Source of the DNA: Campylobacterota bacterium
GTDB lineage: Bacteria > Campylobacterota > Campylobacteria > Campylobacterales > Thiovulaceae
Assembly (NCBI GenBank): GCA_030152305.1
Contig: JASKOM010000001.1
Span: 265,174 to 329,173, forward strand
Direction: 5' to 3'
DNA length: 64,000 nucleotides
The notes under the pieces were generated by a model. It had not been told where the DNA came from. It worked only from the letters and a program-made list of their open reading frames with translations, and ran no database searches. The position numbers were made by a program, and so were the translations under genes. Positions within the stretch are counted from its first letter, which is position 1; each line of letters starts with the position of its first letter. Of this stretch, positions 5,954 through 44,941 are shown in pieces.

Positions 5954-6125
5954 GAAAATCTTCTTTTTTTTTAAATTCCACAAACATATTTTTATTATTT
6001 TTTATTAACTTATTTAATTTTAATTTATTTGAAAATGAGGCATTGAGTTATAATTCGACAAGATCATTCCTCACGAACTTGCAAATGTGAGAAATGAAAA
6101 ATTCCAAAAAGAAAGCGGTGAAATT

Positions 6126-6998
6126 ATGGCATACAAATATGAATCTGTGCTGAAATCGTTCCAATACTCGACAGAGAGTTATCAAGTTATTTCTGATTTT
6201 TTATTATCAGGTGATAAAACAAATCCAAAAGTCATGTTAAAAGTAACAGAAATTTCTAAACATTTCAACAAACGACCTAATGATTGGTTTGCAAATCCTA
6301 CGGTTATAGACTTTATTAGAACTTTGATTTTAGTCAAATTAGAAAATAAAGATACAAAATTAATAAAAGCTTTTAAAAAATGGGCTAAGGAAGAAAAAGC
6401 AATTACCAGAAAATCTGGTAATTGGCAACACAGCGATTTTATCGATGTTATCAACAAGTTAGAACACAAAGCTATTATTGATTTTGCAAAGTCGATTGAA
6501 CTTATTATTGTCAAACGAGGTAATGCAGAATTAACAGGGGCTTCATCTGGAACTTGGATTAATCGAGACTTAGCTGTTAAATATGCTGAATGGCTTGATC
6601 CTAAGTTTTCAATTTGGGTTTCTCAAAAAATCTTAGAACTTGTTAATGACGGTGTTGCTTGGAATGAAATTCGAAATAAGACCAAAAAAGATTATTTGCC
6701 TCTCACAAGTGCAATTAAAAAATATGTTGTTCCAGCAAATACGAAAACAAAAGCGGATATTATTTACGGACAAATAGCAAACTTTATAAATTTGCGAGTT
6801 ACTCAACAAAAAGCAAAAGACATTCGCGAAGAACGACATATTCAAGCAAACGAATTAACTCGAGATTATTTCGAAAAACTTGAATTAGATCGAATTGCAA
6901 AACTTCAAATCTTCGCTGAAATGATCATTGCTCAATTAAATATAACTTATCTAATAAAATTATCAAATATGATCGCAAACTACAAATATCAAGACTAA
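6126..6998 (+). CDS. KilA-N domain DNA-binding protein with P63C-like C-terminal half
   Basis: SGTWINRDLAVKYAEWLDPKFSIWVSQKI is the KilA-N signature. The ORF track starts at 6087. The ATG at 6126 is preferred because of a purine-rich RBS. Confidence 0.7.
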   Translation: MAYKYESVLKSFQYSTESYQVISDFLLSGDKTNPKVMLKVTEISKHFNKRPNDWFANPTVIDFIRTLILVKLENKDTKLIKAFKKWAKEEKAITRKSGNWQHSDFIDVINKLEHKAIIDFAKSIELIIVKRGNAELTGASSGTWINRDLAVKYAEWLDPKFSIWVSQKILELVNDGVAWNEIRNKTKKDYLPLTSAIKKYVVPANTKTKADIIYGQIANFINLRVTQQKAKDIREERHIQANELTRDYFEKLELDRIAKLQIFAEMIIAQLNITYLIKLSNMIANYKYQD

Positions 6999-8259: not shown

Positions 8260-8334
8260 GCGGGAATAGCTCAGTGGTAGAGCACAACCTTGCCAAGGTT
8301 GGGGTCGCGGGTTCGAATCCCGTTTCCCGCTCCA
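8260..8334 (+). tRNA. tRNA-Gly (anticodon GCC)
   Basis: 75 nt. Acceptor GCGGGAA/TTCCCGC, anticodon loop TTGCCAA, T-loop GGTTCGAATCC, encoded CCA. Confidence 0.95.
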
Positions 8335-8349
8335 ATTTAAGTTTTTGTT

Positions 8350-8437
8350 GCCCGGGTGGCGGAATAGGTAGACGCAAGGGACTTAAAATCCCTCGATAGT
8401 TTTTATCGTACCGGTTCGATTCCGGTTTCGGGCACCA
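8350..8437 (+). tRNA. tRNA-Leu (anticodon TAA)
   Basis: 88 nt with a long variable arm. Anticodon loop CTTAAAA, T-loop GGTTCGATTCC, encoded CCA. Confidence 0.95.
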
Positions 8438-8454
8438 CTACTAGTCAAACAGTT

Positions 8455-8529
8455 GGCGACATAGCCAAGTGGTAAGGCAGAAGCCTGCAAAGCTTTTATG
8501 CCCCAGTTCGAATCTGGGTGTCGCCTCCA
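8455..8529 (+). tRNA. tRNA-Cys (anticodon GCA)
   Basis: 75 nt. Acceptor GGCGACA/TGTCGCC, anticodon loop CTGCAAA, T-loop AGTTCGAATCT, encoded CCA. Confidence 0.95.
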
Positions 8530-8562
8530 TAGTTAACTGATGACTAATATATTATATTTCAC

Positions 8563-8652
8563 GGGGCGATGGCAGAGTTGGTTGATTGCACCGGTCTTGA
8601 AAACCGGCGAGGCTAATAACCTCCCAGGGTTCGAATCCCTGTCTCCCCGCCA
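8563..8652 (+). tRNA. tRNA-Ser (anticodon TGA)
   Basis: 90 nt with a long variable arm. Anticodon stem CCGGT/ACCGG with loop CTTGAAA, T-loop GGTTCGAATCC, encoded CCA. There is one C/T mismatch in the acceptor stem. Confidence 0.9.
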
Positions 8653-9042: not shown

Positions 9043-9837
9043 TTATATTCTTTTTAATATTAAAATAGATATTAATATAATTACAGATGTTGCAATTATT
9101 GAAGCACCGCTTGGAATTGCAAAATAAAATGATAATAAAAGCCCCATTGTTGTTGATATTGTTGAAATTAAAATTGCTATTAATAATGTGTTCAAAAAGC
9201 CCGTTTTGAGTTGCAAAGCAGAAATCACTGGAATTACGATCATTGCTCCAATTAGTAATGAGCCGATAATATGAATTGAAAGTGCAACCAATAATCCAAC
9301 CATCGTAATTAATAAAAAATTTAAATAATCTATTTTTACACCGCTGACTTTTGCGACATTTTCATCTAATGATAAATATATAAAATCTCGCCAATAATAT
9401 GACATGATTATTAATATTGTTACGGCTAATATCGATAAATAAATAAGATCTTGATTTGTAATTGATAAAATTGAACCAAATAAATATGATAATAATGATG
9501 AATTAAAATTGTTGCTTAAACTAACTAAAATTATCGAAAGTGCTAACGAAGTTGATAATATTATTGCTAATAACGAATCAGAATAAATTTGATATTTAAA
9601 TCTTAAATATTCGATTAGCAGAGATAATATTAAGACTGTTATAATTGTTGAAATCGTTGGTGAAATTCCAGTTATTATTCCAATTGAAACACCTAACAGT
9701 GCAACATGTGCAAGAGTATCTGAAACCATCGCATATCTTTTTAAAACAATAAATATTCCAACTAATGGAGTTAATAACGATAAAATCGCTCCACCAATAA
9801 AAGCACGAATCATAAAATCATATTGAAATATTTCCAT
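9043..9837 (-). CDS. ABC-3 family metal (Zn/Mn) transporter permease
   Basis: 264-aa polytopic membrane protein with ZnuB/MntB/TroD-like sequence throughout. Confidence 0.75.
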   Translation of the reverse strand: MEIFQYDFMIRAFIGGAILSLLTPLVGIFIVLKRYAMVSDTLAHVALLGVSIGIITGISPTISTIITVLILSLLIEYLRFKYQIYSDSLLAIILSTSLALSIILVSLSNNFNSSLLSYLFGSILSITNQDLIYLSILAVTILIIMSYYWRDFIYLSLDENVAKVSGVKIDYLNFLLITMVGLLVALSIHIIGSLLIGAMIVIPVISALQLKTGFLNTLLIAILISTISTTMGLLLSFYFAIPSGASIIATSVIILISILILKRI

Positions 9838-9844
9838 TGTATAA

Positions 9845-10111
9845 TCAAACTCCGTTATTTTCTTGTTCTATTCGTATCTTGCCTAATTTACAAGTTGCTC
9901 CAACATGATTATGATCGTGTTTATGTCGTTCGTCAATAAAATCTAAATCGCTTTTTGCCTGTTTTAATATTCTTTTTTGTTGAACCAATGGCAAAATACA
10001 GCTATCTTTTTCTGGAAGTGAAAGAGAAGAATCACCAATAACTTTTTGAACTTCTTTTGTTATTTCAGCAATTGCTAAATCTATATATTCTTGAACTTTG
10101 TGCATTAGCAA
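9845..10111 (-). CDS. hypothetical protein with a His-rich segment (HKHDHNH)
   Basis: 88-aa ORF between hldE and the metal permease, overlapping the hldE stop by 7 nt. No recognisable family. Confidence 0.4.
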   Translation of the reverse strand: MLMHKVQEYIDLAIAEITKEVQKVIGDSSLSLPEKDSCILPLVQQKRILKQAKSDLDFIDERHKHDHNHVGATCKLGKIRIEQENNGV

Positions 10112-11544
10112 TTACACTCAATTTTTTTTATAATATTTGTCGTGCTTCGACCTTCAAGAAAATTTATTAATTCAACTTTTTTTACAAGATCAGAACCGAC
10201 GACTTCTTTATTTTTATAATCAGCACCTTTGACAAGAACATCAGGTTTAATAATTTTTATTAATTCATACGGTGTATCTTCTTCGAAAATCACGACATAA
10301 TCAACAGCTCTTAATCCCGATAAAATTATTGCTCGGTCATTTTCGTTATTAATTGGTCGTGTTTGACCTTTTAATTTTTTAACAGAACTATCAGAATTCA
10401 ATCCGACGATTAAAATATCTCCCAATTCTCGAGCTTTATTTAAATAAGAAACATGACCAGCATGTAAAATATCAAAACAGCCATTCGTGAAAATTACTTT
10501 TTTGCCACTATTTTTTAAATTTGAACTAATTTTTTCGACCTCATCGCGAGATAATATTCGTTTATCTGGATTTAACTTTTCACCATCTTCTAAATATAAA
10601 ATCTCATCGAATGAAGCCGTTGCAGTTCCAACTTTGCTAATTACAACCGCGGCGGCACTGTTGGCAAAATGAATCGCACTATGAAGATCTAACTTGCTAT
10701 TTAACGAAACAGCAATCGATGCCAAAACAGTATCACCAGCTCCTGTAACATCAAAAACTTCTTTGCCTTTTGTTGGAAAACTAGATAATTCTCCGTTTTT
10801 GTCAAATAATTTCATTCCGTCTTCTGACAAAGTAATTATCGATTTATCAAAATCAAATTTATTAATTAATTCAAAACCTAATTTATTTATATCGCTAATT
10901 TCACCGTTGAATGCTTCAATTGCCTCTTTTTTATTTGGTTTAATTAAAAAAGCTCCACGATATTTTTCGTAATTTTTACCTTTTGGATCAACAAGAACAG
11001 GAATATTGAATTTTTTAGCCAAATTAATTATTGATCTAGCTAAATAATAAGAAACTACACCTTTACCATAATCAGAAATAAGAATCGATTTATATTTATG
11101 AATATTCGATTTTAATATTTCGCAAATGTGATCAGCAACCTCATCGCTGATATCTTTTTTACTTTCAAGATCAAAACGAGAAATTTGTTGATGTCTTGCG
11201 ATAATTCGACTTTTTAAAGTTGTTGGTCTGTCATTCGAAACGATAATTCCAAATGAGCCAATATTCGAACGAGCGAGTTCATTTTTTAATAATTCGCCGT
11301 TTGAATCATTGCCAATTACACCGAATAAATCAACATTATGTTCAAAACTTTTGATATTAAAAGCTACATTTGCTGAACCACCTAAACGAAAAGTTTCCGA
11401 AGATAGTTCAACGATTTGAATTGGTGCTTCAGGTGATATTCGATTTGTTTCGCCGATGAGGTAGCGATCGATCATAATATCACCGATAACAGCTGTGTAA
11501 CTTTTTGTCGATGAATTTTTAATAGCTTCAATGATTTCTCTCAA
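10105..11544 (-). CDS. hldE: bifunctional D-beta-D-heptose 7-phosphate kinase / D-beta-D-heptose 1-phosphate adenylyltransferase
   Basis: 479 aa. N-terminal ribokinase-like domain (DVTGAGDT) plus C-terminal cytidylyltransferase-like domain (FTNGCFDILHAGHVSYL). TTG start. Confidence 0.92.
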   Translation of the reverse strand: MREIIEAIKNSSTKSYTAVIGDIMIDRYLIGETNRISPEAPIQIVELSSETFRLGGSANVAFNIKSFEHNVDLFGVIGNDSNGELLKNELARSNIGSFGIIVSNDRPTTLKSRIIARHQQISRFDLESKKDISDEVADHICEILKSNIHKYKSILISDYGKGVVSYYLARSIINLAKKFNIPVLVDPKGKNYEKYRGAFLIKPNKKEAIEAFNGEISDINKLGFELINKFDFDKSIITLSEDGMKLFDKNGELSSFPTKGKEVFDVTGAGDTVLASIAVSLNSKLDLHSAIHFANSAAAVVISKVGTATASFDEILYLEDGEKLNPDKRILSRDEVEKISSNLKNSGKKVIFTNGCFDILHAGHVSYLNKARELGDILIVGLNSDSSVKKLKGQTRPINNENDRAIILSGLRAVDYVVIFEEDTPYELIKIIKPDVLVKGADYKNKEVVGSDLVKKVELINFLEGRSTTNIIKKIECNC

Positions 11545-19059: not shown

Positions 19060-19272
19060 TTATTGTAATTTCAACGAAACACTTTCATAAAGTTTTGCTT
19101 TTTTGTAAGCTTCTATATATAGCTTAATAATTTTTGGCACTTCAATATCACCAAGCACCCATCGATTAATAGTATTGGCGGTTTTATCGATATGTTCTGC
19201 GAAATCTTTTTGGGTCATTCCAATAGCTTTTAATTCGGCTTTCAAATCAAACTCTTTTTTTATTTCCTCCAT
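19060..19272 (-). CDS. XRE/Cro-type helix-turn-helix protein (H6, orphan)
   Basis: 70 aa. GMTQKDFAEHIDKTANTINRWVLG is an HTH_3 pattern. The first 25 aa are near-identical to H5 (20275-20499). Confidence 0.8.
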   Translation of the reverse strand: MEEIKKEFDLKAELKAIGMTQKDFAEHIDKTANTINRWVLGDIEVPKIIKLYIEAYKKAKLYESVSLKLQ

Positions 19273-19337
19273 TTAACACCTTTCACAATTTTTCGTAATT
19301 TTAATATTTTTGGCTTTTCGATTGTCATCCCAAACCA

Positions 19338-19404
19338 GTCATCCCGAATTTATTTCGGGATCTAATTAATTTGAAAAAAGATTCTAAAATGAATTCATGG
19401 CGAC
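19338..19404 (+). repeat. palindromic repeat element, copy E4 plus an inverted partner
   Basis: GTCATCCCGAATTTATTTCGGGATC (19338-19362), the spacer TAATTAATTTGAAAAAA, and an inverted degenerate copy GATTCTAAAATGAATTCATGGCGAC (19380-19404). Confidence 0.75.
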
Positions 19405-19414
19405 GAAAAGTTTA

Positions 19415-20167
19415 TTAAACAATCGTTTTTATTTTCCACTTGATTTGATTAAACTTACCAACGATCGCAATTCCAAATTCTTCACCCGATGAGGTCATTT
19501 TCCAAATTCCATTTTCTTTAACTTGAAAACCTTTATGAGCTAACATCAAATTAATTTCGACAGGACTTTTGTTAATCATTTTGCCTAATTCAGTCGGAAG
19601 AAAGAATTGCGAATCAAGCTCTATTTCAAAATATTCAAGAACTGAAAAGTTATGAAACTTTCGATAAAACTTATCAAGTCGAAATAAATCGATTGGATTT
19701 GCATTTCGTAAATTTGCGAGTAAGTTTGTTGTTGCTGTGAAATTGTTATCAAGTTCGATTATCTGTTCAGTTGAATTTCCAATTTCTGGAAGTTGAGAAG
19801 TTTGAATTTGCGGTTTCTGATTTTGTAAAAGCTCTCGCATTCTAAAGAATTCCCCAACTAAACGGACTTTAAAATCTAAAACGATGTCGTTATTTCTCAT
19901 CATTGAAATTAGTAAAGTTGCTTGTTGCTCGTTGAGATAGAAAGTTTTAGCAGGTCTATAATTTGGATTAAGTTTTTGCTGTTCTTTTATTTCAAATTCG
20001 CCCTCGATTTTAAATCGCATCCGATCAAAAAGCTCGAATTTATCGATATTTGAAGTAATTAATTTAGGAATACTTCGCTCTAAGTTTTGTGTTTGTTCAG
20101 CGATAACTCGATGAGAAATTTGTGGTTCGTTGTCGATGAGTTCGACTAAGTTTGTTATAATTTCCAT
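19415..20167 (-). CDS. Rha-type N-terminal domain + KilAC/ANT-type C-terminal domain protein (R5)
   Basis: 250 aa. LVELIDNEPQISHRVIAEQT...TFYLNEQQATLLISMMRNNDIVLDFKVRLVGEFFRMRE is Rha-like. The C-terminal FFLPTELGKMINKSPVEINLMLAHKGFQVKENGIWKMTSSGEEFG is KilAC-like. Confidence 0.75.
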   Translation of the reverse strand: MEIITNLVELIDNEPQISHRVIAEQTQNLERSIPKLITSNIDKFELFDRMRFKIEGEFEIKEQQKLNPNYRPAKTFYLNEQQATLLISMMRNNDIVLDFKVRLVGEFFRMRELLQNQKPQIQTSQLPEIGNSTEQIIELDNNFTATTNLLANLRNANPIDLFRLDKFYRKFHNFSVLEYFEIELDSQFFLPTELGKMINKSPVEINLMLAHKGFQVKENGIWKMTSSGEEFGIAIVGKFNQIKWKIKTIV

Positions 20168-20274: not shown

Positions 20275-20499
20275 TTATACTTTAATGAAAAACTGTTGTT
20301 TTATAATTTCGTCAAGTGTTTTTGCTTTTTTGTAATTTTCAATTAATCGCTCGACCCATTTTGGCATTAATAAATCGCCTGTAATCCATCTACTGACTGT
20401 ATTATGATTAATTTCTGTATATTTTGCGAAATCTTTTTGAGTCATTCCAAGAGCTTTTAATTCGGCTTTCAAATCAAACTCTTTTTTTATTTCCTCCAT
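20275..20499 (-). CDS. XRE/Cro-type helix-turn-helix protein (H5)
   Basis: 74 aa. GMTQKDFAKYTEINHNTVSRWITG. Lies immediately upstream of R5 on the same strand. Confidence 0.8.
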   Translation of the reverse strand: MEEIKKEFDLKAELKALGMTQKDFAKYTEINHNTVSRWITGDLLMPKWVERLIENYKKAKTLDEIIKQQFFIKV

Positions 20500-20550
20500 T
20501 TAACACCTTTCCCAATTTTTCGTAATTTTAATATTTTTGGTTTTTCGATT

Positions 20551-20591
20551 ATCATCCCGAAGCGATAGCTCCTGTAATTCATTTCAGGATC
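20551..20591 (+). repeat. palindromic repeat element, long variant E5
   Basis: ATCATCCCGAAGCGATAGCTCCTGTAATTCATTTCAGGATC. Outer arms ATCCCGAA/TTCAGGAT enclose a small internal hairpin. Confidence 0.75.
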
Positions 20592-20650
20592 TAAAAAAAT
20601 TTTGCTACAATTCAAATCAAAAAATCTTAAATTATTTGTTTTAAATTTAT

Positions 20651-20821: not shown

Positions 20822-21754
20822 ATGATGGAAATCGTAAAAATTGTGCCTCAAAAAATTGGGGAAGAGAATTCTCAAGCTGTGTCAGCGAGAGATTTACATA
20901 AATTCTTAGGTGTCAAAAGACAATTTGCAAACTGGATTAAGGATCAGCTTAATAGAGGTAGATTTATAGAAAATATCGATTATATAGTAGCTTCAACCGT
21001 TAACATAAATGTTAACGGCAAAAATGTAACAGCCGAAGCTAATTCTACACAGCGAGATCAATCTGGTAAATTTACATCGATTGAATATTTCTTAACTCTT
21101 GAAACTGCTAAACATGTATCTTTAATGAGTGAAACAGAAAAAGGTTATGAAGTTCGAAACTATTTTATTCGGATTGAAAAAGAGTATTCAAACTTAAAAA
21201 CTCAACAAGCTATTCATGAAGCCGTTGAGCAAGAACGAAAAAATCAAAATCCAAAACTTGAGTTAATCAAAGTTCGCGGAAATGGAAAAATTATTCGAAG
21301 ATCTTTCACGGATGCAGTTAAAGATTTTGTTGTTTATGCAAAATCGCAAGGTAGTCAAAATGCTGATCGTTATTATTTAATTTTCACAATTGAAATTTAT
21401 AGAAAACTTGGCTTAATCAAAACGAATAAAGATTTTGGCAAATTAAAAAATGCGATTTCTGAAATCAAATTAAATGAACAAGATCTTAAAAAACTAGATA
21501 AGCAATTTAATTTTCGCGATGAATTAGATGTTGAAAACTTAACAGTTGTTAGTTCGTGTGAAATTATTGTTCAGCGAATTATTGAAGATGAAATGACAAA
21601 ACAGACACCTTACAAACAAATTTTTAAAATTGCAAAAGCTCAACTTTCGACAATTCAAATCGCATTCGAGCCTTATATCGCAACCGCAAAACAGCAACTT
21701 GAATTCAAAGGGACTTTGTTTGAGTTTTTATTACTTGAAAATAAAGAATCTTAG
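20822..21754 (+). CDS. AntA-type N-terminal domain + P63C-like C-terminal domain protein (P1)
   Basis: 310 aa. AVSARDLHKFLGVKRQFANWIKDQ...EYFLTLETAKHVSLMSETEKGYEVRNYFIRIEKEY is AntA/AntB-like. GKIIRRSFTDAVKDFVVYAKSQGSQNADRYYLIFTIEIYRKLG...NFRDEL is P63C-like. Confidence 0.7.
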   Translation: MMEIVKIVPQKIGEENSQAVSARDLHKFLGVKRQFANWIKDQLNRGRFIENIDYIVASTVNINVNGKNVTAEANSTQRDQSGKFTSIEYFLTLETAKHVSLMSETEKGYEVRNYFIRIEKEYSNLKTQQAIHEAVEQERKNQNPKLELIKVRGNGKIIRRSFTDAVKDFVVYAKSQGSQNADRYYLIFTIEIYRKLGLIKTNKDFGKLKNAISEIKLNEQDLKKLDKQFNFRDELDVENLTVVSSCEIIVQRIIEDEMTKQTPYKQIFKIAKAQLSTIQIAFEPYIATAKQQLEFKGTLFEFLLLENKES

Positions 21755-21759
21755 TTTCC

Positions 21760-21800
21760 GTCATCCTGAAGCGAAAGCTCCTGTAACTTGTTTCGGGATC
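21760..21800 (+). repeat. palindromic repeat element, long variant E6
   Basis: GTCATCCTGAAGCGAAAGCTCCTGTAACTTGTTTCGGGATC with an internal GC-GAAA-GC hairpin. Confidence 0.8.
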
Positions 21801-21859
21801 TAAAAAAATTTTGCTACAATTCAAATCAAAAAATTTTAAATTATTTGTTTTAAGTTTAT

Positions 21860-22027: not shown

Positions 22028-22906
22028 ATGATGGAAATCGTAAAAATTGTGCCTCAAAAAATTGGGGAAGAGAATTCTCAAGCTGTTTCAGCGAGAGATT
22101 TATATAAATTCTTAGGTGTAAAAAGACAGTTTTCAGACTGGATCAAGGATCAAATTAACAGAGGTTTGTTTGAGGAAAACATCGATTTTATCACGAGTTC
22201 ACAAAAAAGTGAAGTCGGCCCAGTTGTCAAAGAAGTAAAAGAATATTATTTGACAATTGAAACCGCGAAGTATATTGCTTTAATGAGTAGAACAGAAAAA
22301 GGTAAAGAAGTAAAAAGATATTTTCTCAAAATCGAAAAAGAGTATTTCAATTTGAAAGTTCATGAAGCCGTTGAGCAAGAACGAAAAAATCAAAATCCAA
22401 AACTTGAGTTAATCAAAGTTCGCGGAAATGGAAAAATTATTCGAAGATCTTTCACGGATACAGTTAAAGATTTTATCGTTTATGCAAAATCGCAAGGTAG
22501 TCAAAATGCTGATCGTTATTATTTAATTTTCACAATTGAAATTTATCGAAAACTTGGCTTAATAAAAACGAATAAAGATTTTGGCAAATTGAAAAATGCG
22601 ATTTCTGAAATAAAATTAAACGATGAAGATCTTAAAAAACTAGATAAGCAATTTAATTTTCGCGATGAATTAGATGTTGAAAACTTAACCGTTGTTAGTT
22701 CGTGTGAAATTATTGTTCAGCGAATTATCGAAGACGAAATGACAAAACAGACACCTTACAAACAAATTTTTCAAATTGCAAAAGCTCAACTTGCAACAAT
22801 TTCAATCGCATTCGAGCCTTATATTGTAACCGCAAAACAGCAACTTGAATTTAAAAATACACTTTTTGAGTTTTTATTACTTGAAAATAATCCTGTTGTG
22901 AATTAA
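22028..22906 (+). CDS. AntA-type + P63C-like protein (P2)
   Basis: 292 aa. Paralog of P1 with a different segment between ENIDF and EYYLT. C-terminus is ...LLLENNPVVN, as in P4. Confidence 0.7.
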   Translation: MMEIVKIVPQKIGEENSQAVSARDLYKFLGVKRQFSDWIKDQINRGLFEENIDFITSSQKSEVGPVVKEVKEYYLTIETAKYIALMSRTEKGKEVKRYFLKIEKEYFNLKVHEAVEQERKNQNPKLELIKVRGNGKIIRRSFTDTVKDFIVYAKSQGSQNADRYYLIFTIEIYRKLGLIKTNKDFGKLKNAISEIKLNDEDLKKLDKQFNFRDELDVENLTVVSSCEIIVQRIIEDEMTKQTPYKQIFQIAKAQLATISIAFEPYIVTAKQQLEFKNTLFEFLLLENNPVVN

Positions 22907-29701: not shown

Positions 29702-29723
29702 AATTCAAAAAAACAGTTTTTCC

Positions 29724-29764
29724 GTCATCCTGAAGCGAAAGCTCCTGTAACTTGTTTCGGGATC
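29724..29764 (+). repeat. palindromic repeat element, long variant E7
   Basis: Identical to E6: GTCATCCTGAAGCGAAAGCTCCTGTAACTTGTTTCGGGATC. Confidence 0.8.
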
Positions 29765-29825
29765 TAATTAAAAATTTTGCTACAATTCAAATCAAAAAAT
29801 CTTAAATTATTTGTTTTAAATTTAT

Positions 29826-35964: not shown

Positions 35965-37865
<1,901 letters not shown>

Positions 37866-37956: not shown

Positions 37957-38712
37957 TTACAAAACAGCTTTAATCTTCCACTTTAATTGACTAAACTTAC
38001 CATTTATCTCAATTCCAAAATCACGACCAGATTTTGTTAATTTCCAAACACCATTTTCACGAATTTGAAAACCTTTATGTTCGAGCATCAAATTAATCTC
38101 GACCGCTGATTTGTTGATCATTTTGCCTAATTCAGTTGGTAAGAAAAATTGATTTTCGAGATCAATCTCAAAATGTTCAAGCGGTGAAAAGTTATGAAAC
38201 TTGCGATAAAACTTATCGAGTCGGTAAAGAGTTGTTGGATTCATATTTTGTAAATTTGCAATTAACTTTTCGGTTGCCGTTAAATTATTATCAAGTTCAA
38301 TAATTTTTTCAGTTTCATTTCCAATTTCTGGAAGTTGTAGGTTTTGAGTTTGCGATTTCTTATTTTGCAAAAGTTCTCGCATTCGAAAGAATTCGCTAAC
38401 TAATCGAACTTTGAAATCTAAAACAATGTCGTTATTTCTCATCATCGAAATTAGTAAAGTTGCTTGTGCTTCGTTTAAATAGAAAGTTTTTTGTTCAACT
38501 TGCCCTCTATCTTTACCATTTTTTGTTGTTCTATCTAAACCCTCATTTTTAAAATGAATGTTTCCAAAAAACTCGAATTTATCGATGTGTTTGTTGATCA
38601 TGTTTGCGATTGAAACAGCTAAGTTTTCTGTTTTTTCTGCGATAACTCGATGAGAAATTCGAGGTTCGTTGTCGATGAGTTCGACGATATTTGTGTTAAA
38701 ATTTGAGTCCAT
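37957..38712 (-). CDS. Rha-type + KilAC-type protein (R4)
   Basis: 251 aa. IVELIDNEPRISHRVIAEKTENLAVSIANMINKHIDKFEFF... The C-terminal ~130 aa are near-identical to R1, R2 and B3. Confidence 0.75.
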   Translation of the reverse strand: MDSNFNTNIVELIDNEPRISHRVIAEKTENLAVSIANMINKHIDKFEFFGNIHFKNEGLDRTTKNGKDRGQVEQKTFYLNEAQATLLISMMRNNDIVLDFKVRLVSEFFRMRELLQNKKSQTQNLQLPEIGNETEKIIELDNNLTATEKLIANLQNMNPTTLYRLDKFYRKFHNFSPLEHFEIDLENQFFLPTELGKMINKSAVEINLMLEHKGFQIRENGVWKLTKSGRDFGIEINGKFSQLKWKIKAVL

Positions 38713-38828: not shown

Positions 38829-39083
38829 TTATCTTGTTTGAATTGCGATTAACTGACTCATGCTATTTTTAAAATTTTTAAACTCTTGCTCTTTTAGTAA
38901 TAAATTTAATGTTGTTTCAACTAAAAGTGAAATTGGTGTTTTATTATTTGCCCAATCAGAAACAGTATTTTTATTGACCCCTATTCTTTCCGCCAATTCT
39001 TTTTGAGTTATGCCCAATTCACGGCAGGTTTTTTTAACTAAGTTTTCTTGTTTGTCTTGTTCGGTTTTTTCAATTTTACTCAC
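38829..39083 (-). CDS. XRE/Cro-type HTH protein (H4)
   Basis: A GTG start at 39081-39083 follows AAAGGA and gives MSKIEKTEQDKQENLVKKTCRELGITQKELAERIGVNKNTVSDWANN... The ORF-track ATG at 39140 lies inside the last codons (KWKIKTII*) of the upstream gene. Confidence 0.7.
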   Translation of the reverse strand: MSKIEKTEQDKQENLVKKTCRELGITQKELAERIGVNKNTVSDWANNKTPISLLVETTLNLLLKEQEFKNFKNSMSQLIAIQTR

Positions 39084-39115
39084 GAATAAATCCTTTTGAT
39101 TTTCCGTAATTTTAA

Positions 39116-39874
39116 TTAAATTATCGTTTTTATCTTCCATTTTATTTGACTAAACTTACCAACGATCTCAATTCCAAATTCATTCCCCGATTTTGTTAAT
39201 TTCCAAACACCATTTTCACGAATTTGAAAACCTTTATGTTCGAGCATCAAATTAATCTCGACGGGACTTTTGTTAATCATTTTGCCTAATTCAGTTGGAA
39301 GGAAAAATTGCGAATCGAGATTAATCTCAAAATGTTCAAGCGGTGAAAAGTTATGAAACTTGCGATAAAACTTATCGAGTCGGTAAAGAGTTGTTGGCTT
39401 TTTTGATTCGAGGATTTCAATTAAATTTGAAGTTTCGAGAACATCGTTTTTTAATTCGATCATTTTGTCAGTTTCATTTCCAATTTCTGGAAGTTGTAGG
39501 TTTTGAGTTTGTGGCTGTTGAATTGAATAATTTCCAGTTTTGCGAATTGACGGAAGAACTTCACCAGCGATCCATTTTTGAAAAGGTAAAGCTTTCGGTT
39601 TATCTGAACGACCTATAAAAAAATATAATCCTTGTTCTGATAAAACAAGCATATTTCGGGTTATATTATTCATACGAATCGGTTTCGTATGAACCCATTC
39701 GTTAGGCACATTAGCAATTAAATTGCTATCAAATCGTTGATATTCTAAAGCAGTTGCAACATCTTTTGCGACAAACCAAATTGTCTCATTTGCAAAAATT
39801 GTCCTGATTTGATTACGATCTTCGAATAAAAATTGCGATTCAGAAGAGTTTTCTGATAAAATAGAGGAAGTCAT
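39116..39874 (-). CDS. Bro-N domain + KilAC-type protein (B3)
   Basis: 252 aa. IRTIFANETIWFVAKDVATALEY...LSEQGLYFFIGRSDKPKALPFQKWIAGEVLPSIRKTG is Bro-N. From QTQNLQLPEIGNET onward it is near-identical to the Rha-type paralogs. Confidence 0.8.
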   Translation of the reverse strand: MTSSILSENSSESQFLFEDRNQIRTIFANETIWFVAKDVATALEYQRFDSNLIANVPNEWVHTKPIRMNNITRNMLVLSEQGLYFFIGRSDKPKALPFQKWIAGEVLPSIRKTGNYSIQQPQTQNLQLPEIGNETDKMIELKNDVLETSNLIEILESKKPTTLYRLDKFYRKFHNFSPLEHFEINLDSQFFLPTELGKMINKSPVEINLMLEHKGFQIRENGVWKLTKSGNEFGIEIVGKFSQIKWKIKTII

Positions 39875-39946
39875 TTTGACCTTTAAAAATAAAATGATTA
39901 AGAAAGAAATATTTGCTGTGGTAGGTTGAATTTTCTTTCTGTTTTA

Positions 39947-40216
39947 TTATAATTGATTTAAAATCAAATTGTCAAGTTTATTTCTAAAATTTATTAATTC
40001 TGATTCAATATTTGACATTCTATTAATTTTTAATAATGCTTGAAATAATGTTTCTACTGTTTTAGGTATTTTTTGACCATTGCTCCATCGTGATAAAGCT
40101 TCTTGACTTACCCCTATTCGTTCCGCCAATTCCTTTTGAGTAATGCCTAATTCACGGCAGGTTTTTTTAACTAAGTTTTCTTGTTTGTCTTGTTCGGTTT
40201 TTTCAATTTTACTCAC
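39947..40216 (-). CDS. XRE/Cro-type HTH protein (H3)
   Basis: A GTG start at 40214-40216 follows AAAGGA and gives MSKIEKTEQDKQENLVKKTCRELGITQKELAERIGVSQEALSRWSNG... The ORF-track model (to 40366) reads through a palindromic repeat element. Confidence 0.7.
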   Translation of the reverse strand: MSKIEKTEQDKQENLVKKTCRELGITQKELAERIGVSQEALSRWSNGQKIPKTVETLFQALLKINRMSNIESELINFRNKLDNLILNQL

Positions 40217-40255
40217 GAATAAATCCTTTTGATTTTCCGTAATTTTAATATTTTT

Positions 40256-40332
40256 GGATTCTGAAACAAGTTGCAGGATGACAAGTTTTTTGTCATCCCG
40301 AAGCGATAGCTCCTGTAACTTGTTTCTGGATC
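40256..40332 (+). repeat. palindromic repeat element E10: inverted partner + long variant (MITE-like composite)
   Basis: GGATTCTGAAACAAGTTGCAGGATGAC (40256-40282), the spacer AAGTTTTTT, and GTCATCCCGAAGCGATAGCTCCTGTAACTTGTTTCTGGATC (40292-40332). AATTTTAAT is present on both sides. Confidence 0.75.
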
Positions 40333-40341
40333 TAATTTTAA

Positions 40342-41070
40342 TTAAATTATCGTTTTCATCTTCCACTTCAATTGACTAAACTTACCAACGATCTCAATTC
40401 CAAAATCACGACCAGATTTTGTTAATTTCCAAACACCATTTTCACGAATTTGAAAACCTTTATGTTCGAGCATCAAATTAATCTCGACCGCTGATTTGTT
40501 GATCATTTTGCCTAATTCAGTTGGTAAGAAAAATTGATTTTCGAGATCAATCTCAAAATGTTCAAGCGGTGAAAAGTTATGAAACTTGCGATAAAACTTA
40601 TCGAGTCGGTAAAGAGTTGTTGGATTCATATTTTGTAAATTTGCAATTAACTTTTCGGTTGCCGTTAAATTATTATCAAGTTCAATAATTTTTTCAGTTA
40701 AGTTTCCAATTTCTGGAAGTTGAAAGTTTTTAGTTTGCGATTTTTGATTTTGTAAGATTTCTCGCATTCGAAAGAATTCGCTAACTAAACGGACTTTAAA
40801 ATCTAAAACGATGTCGTTATTTCTCATCATCGAAATTAGTAAAGTTGCTTGTTGCTCGTTTAAATAGAAAGTTTTTTGTTCGTTAGTCCGATTTTTCGAG
40901 TTTTTAATAGCCTCCGTTTTAAACGGAACCATTCCAAAATGTTCGATTTTACTGATTAGTTCAACGACATTTTTTTGTTGAATTTCTGTTTGTTCTGCGA
41001 TAACTCGATGAGAAATTCGCGGTTCATTTTCGATGAGTTCGACGATATTTGTGTTAAAATTTGACTGCAT
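40342..41070 (-). CDS. Rha-type + KilAC-type protein (R2)
   Basis: 242 aa. The N-terminal Rha segment has a distinct middle (AEQTEIQQKNVVELISKIEHFGMVPFKTEAIKNSKNRTNEQ). The C-terminal half is near-identical to R1 and R4. Confidence 0.75.
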   Translation of the reverse strand: MQSNFNTNIVELIENEPRISHRVIAEQTEIQQKNVVELISKIEHFGMVPFKTEAIKNSKNRTNEQKTFYLNEQQATLLISMMRNNDIVLDFKVRLVSEFFRMREILQNQKSQTKNFQLPEIGNLTEKIIELDNNLTATEKLIANLQNMNPTTLYRLDKFYRKFHNFSPLEHFEIDLENQFFLPTELGKMINKSAVEINLMLEHKGFQIRENGVWKLTKSGRDFGIEIVGKFSQLKWKMKTII

Positions 41071-41072
41071 GT

Positions 41073-41151
41073 ATCTCCAATTATTTGACTAAAATAGAAA
41101 TTGCCGTTTCTAAGATAGTTGGAGATAATTATATAGAATATATTCTATATA
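41073..41151 (-). promoter_or_regulatory. candidate operator + promoter + RBS-sequestering 5'UTR hairpin of R2
   Basis: Perfect 22-bp palindrome TATATAGAATATATTCTATATA (41130-41151) overlaps a TATAAT. In the transcript, ATCTCCAA (41126-41119) can pair with TTGGAGAT (41080-41073), which contains the GGAG 2 nt before the ATG. Confidence 0.45.
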
Positions 41152-41161
41152 ATCAAGAATA

Positions 41162-41404
41162 TCATCTATTTAAAATAGCTATAGTTTTTTTTAAAATTTC
41201 TAATTCTTCTTCTTTTTTCAAAAGTTCGATTGTTCTATAAAAACTTTTCGGAGGTTTTAATTTATTATTCGCCCAATTTGTAATCGCTCTTTCACTTACC
41301 CCAATTCGTTCCGCCAATTCCTTTTGAGTTATGCCCAATTCTCGGCATGTTTTTTTAACTAAGTTTTCTTGTTTGTCTTTTTCGGTTTTTTCGACTTCGC
41401 TCAA
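41162..41404 (-). CDS. XRE/Cro-type HTH protein (H2)
   Basis: 80 aa with a TTG start after AAAGGA. MSEVEKTEKDKQENLVKKTCRELGITQKELAERIGVSERAITNWANN... Confidence 0.75.
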   Translation of the reverse strand: MSEVEKTEKDKQENLVKKTCRELGITQKELAERIGVSERAITNWANNKLKPPKSFYRTIELLKKEEELEILKKTIAILNR

Positions 41405-41463
41405 GTTTAGTCCTTTTTTGAATTAATTTGTTTTTCCGCAATTTTAATATTTTTGGATTGATC

Positions 41464-41530
41464 GTCATCCCGAATTGATTTATAGATCTAATTAATTTGA
41501 AACAAGACCCTGAAATCAATTCATTGAGAC
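41464..41530 (+). repeat. palindromic repeat element E11 (degenerate) plus an inverted partner
   Basis: GTCATCCCGAATTGATTTATAGATC (41464-41488), then TAATTAATTTGAAACAA, then GACCCTGAAATCAATTCATTGAGAC (41506-41530). Confidence 0.65.
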
Positions 41531-41538
41531 GAAAAAAT

Positions 41539-42297
41539 TTACAAAACAGCTTTCATCTTCCACTTTAATTGACTAAACTTACCGTTTATCTCAATTCCAA
41601 ATTCATTCCCAGATTTTGTTAATTTCCAAACACCATTTTCTCTAATTTGAAAACCTTTATGTTCGAGCATCAAATTAATCTCGACGGGACTTTTGTTAAT
41701 CATTTTGCCTAATTCAGTTGGTAAGAAAAATTGCGAATCGAGATCAATCTCAAAATGTTCAAGCGGTGAAAAGTTATGAAATTTGCGATAAAACTTATCG
41801 AGTCGGTAAAGAGTTGTCGGATTCATATTTTGTAAATTTGCAATTAACTTTTCGGTTGCCGTTAAATTATTGTCAAGTTCGATTATTTTTTCAGTTGAGT
41901 TTCCAATTTCTGGAAGTTGTAGGTTTTGAGTTTGCGATTTCTGATTTTGCAAAAGTTCTCGCATTCGAAAGAATTCGCTAACTAAACGGACTTTAAAATC
42001 TAAAACGATGTCGTTATTTCTCATCATCGAAATTAGTAAAGTTGCTTGTTGCTCGTTTAAATAGAAAGTTTTTTGTTCAACTTGCCCTCTATCTTTACCA
42101 TTTTTTGTTGTTCTATCTAAACCCTCATTTTTAAAATGAATGTTTCCAAAAAACTCGAACTTATCGATATTTTTGTTGATTAAATTTGCGATTGAAACAG
42201 CTAAGTTTTCTGTTTTTTCAGCGATAACTCGATGAGAAATTCGCGGTTCGTTGTCGATGAGTTCTATTAAGAATTCGGTAAAATTCTTTTCGTTCAT
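41539..42297 (-). CDS. Rha-type + KilAC-type protein (R1)
   Basis: 252 aa. The Rha segment is almost identical to R4. Confidence 0.75.
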   Translation of the reverse strand: MNEKNFTEFLIELIDNEPRISHRVIAEKTENLAVSIANLINKNIDKFEFFGNIHFKNEGLDRTTKNGKDRGQVEQKTFYLNEQQATLLISMMRNNDIVLDFKVRLVSEFFRMRELLQNQKSQTQNLQLPEIGNSTEKIIELDNNLTATEKLIANLQNMNPTTLYRLDKFYRKFHNFSPLEHFEIDLDSQFFLPTELGKMINKSPVEINLMLEHKGFQIRENGVWKLTKSGNEFGIEINGKFSQLKWKMKAVL

Positions 42298-42409: not shown

Positions 42410-42667
42410 TTAAATATATTTTTGAACTTCTTGAATAGAATTTTTTAGATTTTGAAAACTTGTTGTCTTATTTAAACTTTCTACTAATAAATTAATATGA
42501 TTAATAATATTTTTAGGAATATTATTACTTGTTGCATATTTTGATAATGTTCGATCAGTTAAGCCTATTCTTTCTGCCAACTCTTTTTGAGTTATGCCCA
42601 ATTCTCGGCATGTTTTTTTAACTAAGTTTTCTTGTTTGTCTTTTTCGGTAATTTTGACCTCATCCAT
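42410..42667 (-). CDS. XRE/Cro-type HTH protein (H1)
   Basis: The ATG at 42665-42667 lies 10 nt after GGAG and gives MDEVKITEKDKQENLVKKTCRELGITQKELAERIGLTDRTLSKYATS... The ORF-track TTG at 42682 contains that RBS. Confidence 0.75.
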   Translation of the reverse strand: MDEVKITEKDKQENLVKKTCRELGITQKELAERIGLTDRTLSKYATSNNIPKNIINHINLLVESLNKTTSFQNLKNSIQEVQKYI

Positions 42668-42720
42668 TTTTATTATCTCCAATTCCCAATTTTTTGTAAT
42701 TTTAATATTTTTTGCTTTTT

Positions 42721-42745
42721 GTCATCCCGAATTTATTTCGGGATC
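42721..42745 (+). repeat. palindromic repeat element, copy E12
   Basis: GTCATCCCGAATTTATTTCGGGATC, identical to the E4 core. Confidence 0.85.
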
Positions 42746-42754
42746 TAAATTTAT

Positions 42755-43076
42755 TTAATTATATTTACCTAATTCAGTTGGTAAATATAGTTCACGACCA
42801 ATTCTATTTTGAAGTTTTTGAGCGATGAGTATTTATTGCTGTCGTAAATGTATTTCTCAAGTCCATAAAGATTAAATAGATTAATCTTGAAGCTTCAAGA
42901 AAAAGATCTATTAGTTTAAGAATTTTTTGTGTTAAGTTGTCAGTTGCTGGAATGAGCAGTTGTGATTTTTGATTTTCTATAATAATATCTATTTTTCTAG
43001 CTAAATATAAATCTGATGTTCTGACATCAACACTAACACTTCCATTTAAAAGTGCCTCTTCTGTTTGTCCTATCAT
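42755..43076 (-). pseudogene. decayed remnant of a sixth KilAC-type cassette gene
   Basis: Homology to the paralogs is spread over three frames: ENQKSQLLIPATDNLTQKILKLID (cf NQKSQTQNLQLPEIGNETEKIIELD), LYGLEKYIYDSNKYSSLKNFKIEL (cf LYRLDKFYRKFHNFSPLEHFEIDL), and LYLPTELGKYN* (cf FFLPTELGKMINKS). Confidence 0.6.
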
Positions 43077-43222: not shown

Positions 43223-44941
43223 TTGAAAATGAATAAATTAATTCTTGGCGATAATTTAGATTCGTTGAAAAAATTAGAAAGTGAATCGGTTGATCTTATA
43301 TATTTAGATCCGCCGTTTTTCTCGAATCGAAGTTATGAAGTCATTTGGGGCGACAAAGGTGAAATTCGAAGTTTTGAAGATCGCTGGAGTGGTGGAATGG
43401 ATCATTATATTAGCTGGTTAAAAGATCGTGTTGAACAAATGCACAGAGTTCTGAAGCCGACAGGCTCGATATTTCTTCATTGTGATTATCATGCAAATGC
43501 ACATATTCGTGTTTTTATTCTCGATAAAATTTTTGGTGAAGATAATTTCAGAAATGATATTACATGGCAAAGAACAAATAATCCAAAAGGTTCTCAATAT
43601 AAAAAAAAGAATTTAGGAATAGCAACAGATACTATTTTTTGGTATTCAAAATCAAACAAATATTTTTTCGATGATACTAGAATAAGAACTGAACTTGAAG
43701 CGGAATTAGTGGCTGATAAATATCCAAAAATTGACGAATATGGTAGATATTATGAATATCCTATATTAAGATCCGCTTCTAAAGGAGCAAGACCAAACCT
43801 TGTTTATGAATATAAAGGTTTTACTCCACCTTTTTATGGTTGGGTTGTTAGCAAAGAAAAACTAATTGAAATTGACTTACGAGGTGATTTAGGTTGGAGA
43901 AAAAATGGTCAACCTTTTAGAAAGTTTAGACCTCATGAAGATCCAGGCAAATTAGTTAATAACATGTGGGACGATATTTTACGAATTCAATCAAACTCCA
44001 AAGAAGCAATCGGCTATCCAACTCAAAAACCAGAAGCTCTTCTTGAACGAATAATTAAAATGGCAAGTAATTAAAATGATGTTGTTCTTGATCCTTTTGT
44101 TGGCGGTGGAACAACTGTTTCAGTTGCAAATAAATTAAATCGCAAATGGATCGGAATCGATCAATCTCCAATGGCTATTAAAGTTTCTGAATTGCGACTC
44201 GAACGAAATAAAAATTTGTTTTCTGAACCGTTTATCGTGCAATTGCATAAATATGATTTCGACTTTTTGCGAAATTCGGATGCTTTTCAGTTTGAAAGTT
44301 TTATCGTCGAACAATTCGGCGGAATTCCAAATGTCAAACAGCGAGGCGATTCAGGAATTGATGGCAAAACTCGAGACGGATTAGCAATTCAAGTCAAACG
44401 ATCAGATAATATTGGCAGAAATGTCGTTGATAATTTTTTATCAGCAATCAATCGTTTTGACAAAAAATTATTCGAAACTCAAAAAACTAATAAATCTGAA
44501 GTCGGCTATATTATCGCTTTCTCATTTGGCAAAGGTGCAATCGGCGAAGTTGCAAGATTAAAACATGAAGAAAATATAAATATAAAATTAGTGCGAGTCG
44601 ATGAAATCGTTCCAATGGCAACAAAACCAAAATTAAATTTAATAATTTCAGAAAAAAATATTGGCGAAATTGATTCAAAAGGGAATCGAGAATTTATATT
44701 AAAAGCAAAAGCCGAATCGGAATCTGGAATTGAATTTTTTGCTTGGAATTTTAATTATGATGAAAATTTAGGTTTTCAAGCTGAAATTATGATCGATAAA
44801 ACAGGCGAACAGAATTATAAATTTGGAATCGGTGAACACAAAATAGCTGTAAAAGCAATTGACAACGACGGACTTGAGTCAATCGAAATCGTCAAATTAA
44901 AAATCAATGGCAAAATCGAAATAATTTCAACTTCGAAATAA
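43223..44941 (+). pseudogene. beta-class N6A/N4C DNA methyltransferase fused to an Mrr-like nuclease domain and a PKD/Ig-like tail, interrupted by one in-frame TAA
   Basis: Motif IV is DLIYLDPPFFSN (ORF 43223-44074). A TAA lies at 44072-44074. Motif I, VLDPFVGGGTT, is in the same frame at 44084-44116 between the two ORF-track models. Downstream are GDSGIDGKTRDGLAIQVKRS (restriction-endonuclease-like) and FFAWNFNYDE...KAIDNDGLESIEIVKLKING. Confidence 0.7.

Follow-up and report, generated by a model that had tools for sequence, protein, structure and literature searches.

Patchwork exchange within the common C-terminal module of antirepressor-like genes in a tandem Xre-HTH array of a Thiovulum bacterium

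The 64,000-nucleotide (nt) stretch of contig JASKOM010000001.1 analyzed here (the window) comes from a member of the Thiovulaceae and contains B3 (39116-39874, minus strand), a gene for an antirepressor-like protein of 252 amino acids (aa) with a Bro-N head, a disordered linker, and a tail made of a helical hairpin and a winged helix. According to the open reading frame (ORF) map, B3 belongs to an array of four tandem two-gene units on the minus strand, located between groEL (36243-37865, plus strand) and a DNA methyltransferase gene (43223-44074, plus strand). Each unit consists of a small Xre-type helix-turn-helix (HTH) gene followed on the same strand by a gene of about 250 codons: HTH1 (42410-42667) lies upstream of R2 (41539-42297), HTH2 (41162-41404) upstream of R3 (40342-41070), HTH3 (39947-40216) upstream of B3, and HTH4 (38829-39083) upstream of R4 (37957-38712). 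A fifth paralog, X (19415-20167, minus strand), is dispersed 18 kb away from the array and has its own HTH partner upstream (20275-20499, minus strand). Since the GroEL encoded beside the array shares 96% identity with its counterpart in Candidatus Thiovulum stygium and 84% with that of Thiovulum sp. ES, the window derives from a Thiovulum close to T. stygium.

All four HTH genes of the array match the Pfam family HTH_3, with E values from 4e-7 to 5e-10, the latter for HTH3. The downstream genes share a common C-terminal module (C-module) and differ in their heads. In B3, the head is a Bro-N domain (PF02498; 75.2 bits versus a cut-off of 25.6, E=6.4e-21) that occupies aa 22-108 and covers the full profile from position 1 to 96; Bro-N proteins are also found among the fold matches of B3 in BFVD. 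R4, R3, R2, and X carry the Rha-type domain Phage_pRha (PF09669; 41.5-50.9 bits versus a cut-off of 29.9, E=1e-10 to 2e-13); R2 is 94% identical to R4 over 727 nt, and the dispersed X is about 77% identical. A preliminary description of this locus, made from the sequence alone, had likewise assigned a Bro-N head to B3 and Rha heads to its paralogs, and the Pfam matches bear this out.

Head and C-module meet at a sharp step. On the plus strand, the last position of the shared ...GGTTTTGAGTTTG is 39511 in B3 and 38352 in R4, where the preliminary description had placed it, and the sequence continues with TGGCTGTT in B3 versus CGATTTC in R4. BLASTN homology between B3 and either R4 or R2 spans exactly 39128-39511. 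When B3 and R4 are compared pairwise in ungapped register, identity drops from 100% over 39468-39511 to 40% over 39512-39571 and 32% over 39572-39631, against a random expectation of 28%, so that the loss is step-like and not gradual. The whole Bro-N-coding part of B3 (aa 1-121; 39512-39874, minus strand) is 28-43% identical to the Rha paralogs in this register, and a tblastn search of the window with the N-terminal half of B3 returned only B3 itself, i.e., no second Bro-N copy. At the protein level, the proposed junction QTQNLQLPEIGNET also held up: homology with the paralogs starts at aa 122 of B3, inside a stretch (aa 115-131) that AlphaFold2 predicts to be disordered. The first shared segment is a junction island (39468-39511, minus strand; aa 122-136, QTQNLQLPEIGNETD) in which B3 and R4 are identical at 44 of 44 positions. 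All five paralogs of the window have the same 20-nt core of the island, CAACTTCCAGAAATTGGAAA, which recurs in nine metagenome contigs whose family members have a Bro-N or a Rha head. The two other loci among the 11 found with this 20-mer (L015 and L019) lack homology to the family and were discarded as chance matches.

However, any two genes with only one domain in common should show a step of this kind, and the step at 39511/39512 taken alone is the edge of homology rather than a crossover point. The preliminary description had regarded it as direct evidence of domain shuffling by recombination. This reading is partly supported, as the paralogs do recombine and their heads do interchange on a common C-module, but the step by itself is not direct evidence of either; it is the patchwork within the shared module that actually testifies to exchange. 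The same description had also portrayed B3 and R4 as identical or near-identical from their 3' ends up to the step, which overstates their similarity: over the 396 nt that they share, the two genes are 84.6% identical, with 61 mismatches. The corresponding values are 85.1% for R3, 86.4% for R2, and 77.3% for X.

These averages conceal segments of very different divergence. Directly next to the island, an 81-nt block (39387-39467, minus strand; KMIELKNDVLETSNLIEILESKK), which encodes the first long helix of the structural model, is 62% identical to R4, R3, and R2 and 53% identical to X, so that this linker allele is specific to B3 within the window. The C-terminal winged-helix tail (39116-39386, minus strand; 271 nt), on the other hand, is 89% identical to R4, 92% to R3, and 93% to R2. 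The longest perfect tracts between B3 and R4 measure 75 nt (39323-39397, where B3 is identical to R3 as well), 74 nt (39189-39262), and 44 nt (the island), and perfect tracts between the B3 tail and the array paralogs reach 78 nt. The 40 parsimony-informative sites among the five window paralogs are clustered in blocks, in each of which B3 groups with different partners: with R4 at 39474-39499 (plus R2 at 39497-39499), with R2 and X at 39263-39314, with R4 and R3 at 39218-39220, with R2 at 39179-39188, and with R3 and X at 39119-39164, while at 39401-39461 it holds its own allele, with a few sites in common with X.

In the recombination tests, which cover the five copies of the window, the pairwise homoplasy index (PHI) was 0.208 compared to a permutation mean of 0.401 (p<0.0002), and runs tests were significant for all six triplets (p<5e-5 to 0.033). 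Synonymous divergence (dS) is similarly uneven. Between B3 and R2, R3, or R4 it amounts to 0.18-0.27 in the tail and to about 0.96 in the linker, an approximately five-fold difference, and between R4 and R3 it is 0.083 in the C-module and 0.484 in the Rha part. Clustered incompatible sites, heterogeneous dS, and incongruent relationships of the modules were all found, and recombination among the paralogs inside the shared module is well supported by PHI, the runs tests, and the uneven dS. One could argue instead that no recent exchange took place, and that the C-module is simply under strong purifying selection, in which case the step would be the boundary between a conserved domain and a non-homologous one. 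It is true that the protein sequences of the C-module and of the N-terminal HTH half are conserved across species and that the junction core is kept in all copies. Yet selection on the protein alone cannot produce the uneven dS, whereas exchange of tracts can: synonymous sites are near-identical within tracts, and dS changes about five-fold from one segment to the adjacent one. Together with informative sites that fall in mutually incompatible blocks and with C-modules that are most alike between neighbors on the same contig, whatever their head type, this makes an explanation by selection alone highly improbable.

The HTH genes of the array contain a second boundary of the same kind. Their 5' part (95-140 nt) is near-identical between units, and the similarity ends abruptly just before the recognition helix. 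In the B3 unit, this conserved anchor (40110-40249, minus strand; 140 nt) is 97% identical to 38977-39116 at HTH4 and forms the second sharp boundary of the unit. Between the two boundaries lies a cassette of 598 nt that is unique to the B3 unit (39512-40109, minus strand) and comprises the recognition half of HTH3, the intergenic promoter region, and the Bro-N head, with conserved anchors on both sides. The graft proposed in the preliminary description, taken literally, would mean that the central cassette of a Rha unit was recently exchanged, by a double crossover or one long conversion tract, for a foreign one—HTH half, promoter, and Bro-N head—from elsewhere in the genome, using the HTH 5' anchor and the QLPEIGN island as two homology arms. 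The unique segment is indeed flanked by the 140-nt anchor (97% identity to HTH4) and the 44-nt island (100% identity to R4), and the variable half of HTH3 resembles that of a T. stygium HTH gene that also precedes a B3-type Bro-N gene, which suggests, in two cases only, that HTH half and head travel together. However, the linker allele that B3 carries next to the island is separated from those of its neighbors by a dS of about 0.96, meaning that the recipient was not simply an R-type gene and that more events are needed, and no donor Bro-N copy was found in the window. Moreover, such a graft is topologically equivalent to a conversion of the flanks and differs from it only in which part moved. 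We therefore consider a literal graft unlikely.

Relatives of B3 provide a broader view of how heads, linkers, and tails are combined. A search with B3 as the query found 1549 relatives, the top group of which comprises approximately 52 full-length proteins from nine large NCBI contigs and from short metagenome contigs. In these 52 proteins, the same C-module is preceded by Bro-N (24 proteins), Rha (18), or KilA-N (8) heads, by AntA in P0083, and by an untyped head in P0040. Every linker allele occurs with two to three head types—the B3 allele LKNDVLETS..., for instance, with Bro-N, KilA-N, and Rha heads—and alleles of the middle segment and the tail are reassorted too. For 34 of the 52 proteins, the nearest C-module is found in a protein of a different head type, often on the same contig, as in the pairs P0015 (Bro-N)/P0029 (Rha), with 99% identity between C-modules, and P0007 (Bro-N)/P0020 (Rha), with 96%.

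The combination of Bro-N and C-module is not restricted to the window. In T. stygium, locus L001 contains an Xre-HTH gene followed by a B3-type gene with Bro-N head and C-module; P0026, from the same species, is 50% identical to B3 over 94% of the query. Dozens of full-length relatives with 37-49% identity are found in other metagenomes. Because the arrangement of HTH gene, Bro-N head, and C-module is already present in T. stygium and such relatives are widespread, the fusion is old, and Bro-N was probably not newly grafted in this array. Most simply, the recent change would be the homogenization of tails among neighbors, with C-module tracts moved by gene conversion into B3 or in the reverse direction, while the grafting of Bro-N onto a Rha gene is the less simple reading.

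The preliminary description had called for a comparison with arrays from related strains, and an array in T. stygium repeats the same design. Its locus L002 (CP091137, 5573-10228) contains several HTH genes interspersed with four genes that have Bro-N or KilA-N-like heads; all four carry a different common tail (…TPIFDTSSFSSEKLLDVQK…) with 90-96% nucleotide identity, and here too homology starts abruptly after the head. Two members of this array (5986-6558 and 9674-10228) seem to be truncated. For T. stygium, a nanopore assembly closed to a circle is reported (PMC9938260), and a closed chromosome with the same array design argues against an assembly artifact, i.e., against the idea that the patchwork or the join of Bro-N and C-module is a chimera built from short reads of near-identical paralogs or strains. 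What lends this idea some plausibility is that the window apparently stems from a draft genome of an uncultured organism and that related metagenome contigs, 1-2 kb long, break at these genes. Nevertheless, the succession of Bro-N, junction, and C-module is found not only in the independent assemblies L016, L022, L017, and L024 but also on the T. stygium chromosome; in addition, the ORFs are uninterrupted, the join is in frame, and the contig of the window spans 424 kb, so that an artifact seems very unlikely.

As for the short contigs themselves, loci L014, L016-L018, and L020-L024 (from the Joint Genome Institute samples Ga0114939 and Ga0209594) hold family members on contigs of 1-1.8 kb that end in or near these genes. 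This fits a family that acts as an assembly-breaking repeat in natural Thiovulum-like populations.

Taken together, we favor an explanation in which B3 is a member of a modular, antirepressor-like multigene family whose genes are paired with an upstream Xre-type HTH gene, a module of "Xre-Bro" type present four times in tandem. Family proteins combine an interchangeable DNA-binding head (Bro-N, Rha, KilA-N, AntA, or others) with a disordered linker and the common C-module of hairpin and winged helix. The paralogs would exchange sequence where they are alike, namely across the C-module and the 5' half of each HTH gene, and exchange presumably could not enter the non-homologous heads. Since it stops there, the step at 39511/39512 would mark the edge of the convertible module, placed in a disordered interdomain linker that may tolerate any join. 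R2-, R3-, R4-, and X-like sequence would thereby have replaced patches of the B3 tail, while the linker helix kept an older allele. We regard it as likely that gene conversion or homologous recombination among the paralogs was confined to the shared segments in this way and that the step is the limit of homology in a join-tolerant linker. Three points weigh against this explanation. First, the direction and number of exchange events are not recoverable from five copies. Second, in a draft assembly, perfect tracts of 44-78 nt between paralogs could in principle be of chimeric origin. Third, the 20-nt core of the island is kept even in the divergent X, so that part of the identity may reflect constraint instead of recent exchange.

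Concerted evolution of tandem paralogs by gene conversion typically leaves patchy identity tracts, low dS between neighbors, and tracts that end where homology ends. All three are seen here: the tracts are patchy, dS between neighbors is low, and the tracts stop with homology. In contrast to standard concerted evolution, homogenization is limited to one of two modules in this family, and the diversity of heads and linkers is kept and not erased.

The shared module had been labeled KilAC in the preliminary description. This label failed in five ways of testing it by sequence, and any resemblance would be one of fold and architecture. None of the five window proteins matches the corresponding Pfam domain ANT (PF03374; gathering score 25.3 bits), even when the isolated tail is searched at E<=10. 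At E<=0.01, ANT is matched by only two of 68 family members, with a best E value of 0.0031. An hhalign comparison of the C-module profile with an alignment of bona fide ANT domains gave E=0.14, and one with a single such domain E=0.37. The distant member P0446 comes closest with 22.7 bits (E=1.3e-4), again under the cut-off of 25.3, and the sub-threshold alignments of P0036, P0026, and P0446 all cover the same core at profile positions ~25-66.

The AlphaFold2 model of B3, computed from an alignment of 68 sequences, has a mean predicted local distance difference test score (pLDDT) of 86 and consists of Bro-N, the disordered stretch, helical hairpin, and winged helix; modeled alone, the tail adopts the same hairpin and winged helix with a pLDDT of 92. 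A Foldseek search of BFVD with the tail retrieved several entries named "Antirepressor protein" (E=1.8e-3 to 1.4e-2, probability 0.99-1.00), although with template modeling (TM) scores of only 0.38-0.47, and of the two top matches (E=5.5e-5 and 4e-4), one has no name and the other is annotated as "Repressor domain protein." In the PDB, the family profile found nothing meaningful by sequence, and a fold search with the whole protein gave weak winged-helix matches only (E ~0.07). The tail is thus plausibly KilAC-like in its modeled fold and in its position, without being filed as a KilAC member. It belongs to a small family outside Pfam coverage, with 91 clusters at E<=1e-3 among 1.84 billion representatives, and distant members found in a tail-only search carry Bro-N, P22_AR_N, Rha, KilA-N, or AntA heads. 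A tblastn search of 50,697 GenBank phage records with the tail gave no match, and a scan of IMG/VR with C-module patterns gave 80 pattern matches, none of which was confirmed.

Several features of the HTH genes and of the spaces between the units accompany this modular organization. The longest ORF of HTH3 reaches 40366, but an alignment with HTH1 and HTH2 points to a GTG codon at 40216 as the probable start; that of HTH4 reaches 39140 and overlaps the stop codon of B3. Directly upstream of B3, a sigma-70-like promoter pattern (TTGACA-18-TATAAT; 39946-39975, minus strand) matches at 12 of 12 positions, a pattern match only, and promoter-like sites also precede R4 and R3, in a region where the count of such matches is not above the expectation from shuffled sequence. 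The site upstream of R3 overlaps a perfect palindrome of 26 bp (ATTATATAGAATATATTCTATATAAT, 41128-41153), a candidate operator for the adjacent HTH protein.

At the unit boundaries, a short dispersed element (TTAGATCCnGAAA...TTCGGGATGAC...) is found at 40240-40349, 41432-41474, 42683-42756, and 19282-19372, and reverse copies of it lie just after unrelated genes (29715-29769, 20549-20594, and 21760-21803). In one copy, positions 40274-40300 make up an 11-bp hairpin with GC pairs and, behind it, a T-rich tail. No copy separates B3 from HTH4, where the element was apparently deleted between TTAAAATTA repeats, and its loss at this boundary lets the HTH4 ORF run into the end of B3. We had considered the copy at HTH3 as an insertion of a miniature inverted-repeat transposable element (MITE) and rejected this, since the element is a regular spacer at three other unit boundaries and it is the B3-HTH4 boundary that lost it.

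Beyond groEL and the methyltransferase gene, the neighborhood of the array contains leuS, a major facilitator superfamily (MFS) transporter gene, groES next to groEL, a DUF2202 gene, purL, and a nucleotidyltransferase gene. Pfam searches of the ORFs of at least 90 aa between ~32 and 49 kb of the window revealed no phage structural or integration genes, and the region does not qualify as a prophage. The same searches found neither a reverse transcriptase nor a site-specific recombinase of the kind known from diversity-generating retroelements (DGR) or shufflon/invertase systems, and the inverted repeats of the array are short, AT-rich, promoter-proximal palindromes. Compared to the defense systems in PADLOC, B3 has no significant match and R4 a weak one only (E=5.7e-4). 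An Rfam scan found no RNA element in the array, its sole matches being four tRNAs at 8.2-8.6 kb (a cluster of four genes, 8260-8649, plus strand). The methyltransferase gene adjoining the array (43223-44074) is of a type II-like adenine/N4 class; the ORFs flanking it (42804-43076, minus strand, and 44171-44941, plus strand) match no family, and no restriction enzyme was found there.

A second cluster of antirepressor type surrounds X. It includes two plus-strand genes with AntA domains (20822-21754 and 22028-22906; E ~1e-20) and a different C terminus, as well as two minus-strand HTH genes of another family (19060-19272 and 20275-20499; MEEIKKEFDLKAELKA.GMTQKDFA...). Plus-strand ORFs run antisense to the C-module at 38136-38303, 39343-39618, 40521-40688, and 41718-41981; they recur because the module repeats, and there is no evidence that they are genes.

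How does this family relate to known systems? In modular phage antirepressors and BRO regulators, interchangeable heads that bind DNA precede one shared C-terminal domain (Iyer, Koonin and Aravind 2002, as cited in PMC6145125), and the replacement of Rha by Bro before a KilA-C domain has been described in Bacillus phages (PMC6145125); according to the latter's account of Iyer et al. 2002, combinatorial domain shuffling was suggested as the origin of BRO-family architectures. The genes described here resemble that family in their set of heads—Bro-N, Rha, KilA-N, AntA, and P22_AR_N are all seen—and plausibly in the fold of the tail, for which BFVD returned antirepressor C termini. They differ from it in that the tail stays below the Pfam ANT threshold and has no match in GenBank phages and no confirmed one in IMG/VR, and in that the genes are chromosomal, located between groEL and a methyltransferase gene. 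The second precedent is the Xre-Bro two-gene module, proposed to be a toxin-antitoxin (TA)-like pair of repressor and antirepressor (Makarova, Wolf and Koonin 2009, PMC2701414), which was found in many phages and not in bacterial genomes (PMC2701414). Here as there, a small Xre/Cro-type HTH gene is adjacent to and co-oriented with a gene for Bro-N plus an Ant-like domain, and the same pairing recurs at the T. stygium loci L001 and L002 as well as on metagenome contigs. Unlike the module of PMC2701414, the pairs are chromosomal and arranged in tandem arrays, probably with dozens of copies, and they would function as repressor and antirepressor. The shuffling of modular antirepressors and the Xre-Bro pair are thus already known; what goes beyond the textbook is the chromosomal, non-prophage setting and the apparent scale. 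The comparative-genomics paper on Thiovulum makes no mention of the B3 family.

Regarding this scale, the nine large contigs with family members total 1.74 Mb, compared to a T. stygium genome of 1.72 Mb, and no other large-contig genome at NCBI gave a GroEL at 84-100% identity. Because the contigs add up to about the size of the T. stygium genome and there is a single source of GroEL, the approximately 52 paralogs probably all reside in one genome, which would amount to an expansion to at least 50 copies in 1.7 Mb.

It is tempting to speculate that the arrays constitute a cassette-style repertoire for diversification that is peculiar to Thiovulum, with about 50 or more modules of Xre-HTH and antirepressor-like genes in a 1.7-Mb genome, in which conserved anchors act as recombination arms that reshuffle the parts determining specificity. 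The arms would be the HTH 5' half, the QLPEIGN island, and the winged-helix tail, and three parts would be continually reshuffled: the recognition helix of the HTH protein together with its operator, the DNA-binding head at the N terminus, and the helix of the linker. We consider this doubtful; if it were true, the cell would gain an evolving panel of repressor/antirepressor specificities that could be directed, for instance, at temperate phages or other mobile elements.

The locus itself offers a clean case, at nucleotide level, of how modular regulators are rebuilt, with exchange that ends in a disordered linker, heads that stay diverse, and tails that are homogenized. The most notable aspect is the scale of the expansion, as the family is apparently present on every large contig of a small genome. 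If this scale holds, a free-living giant sulfur bacterium would keep dozens of phage-type repressor/antirepressor pairs outside any recognizable prophage, which would call for a functional explanation.

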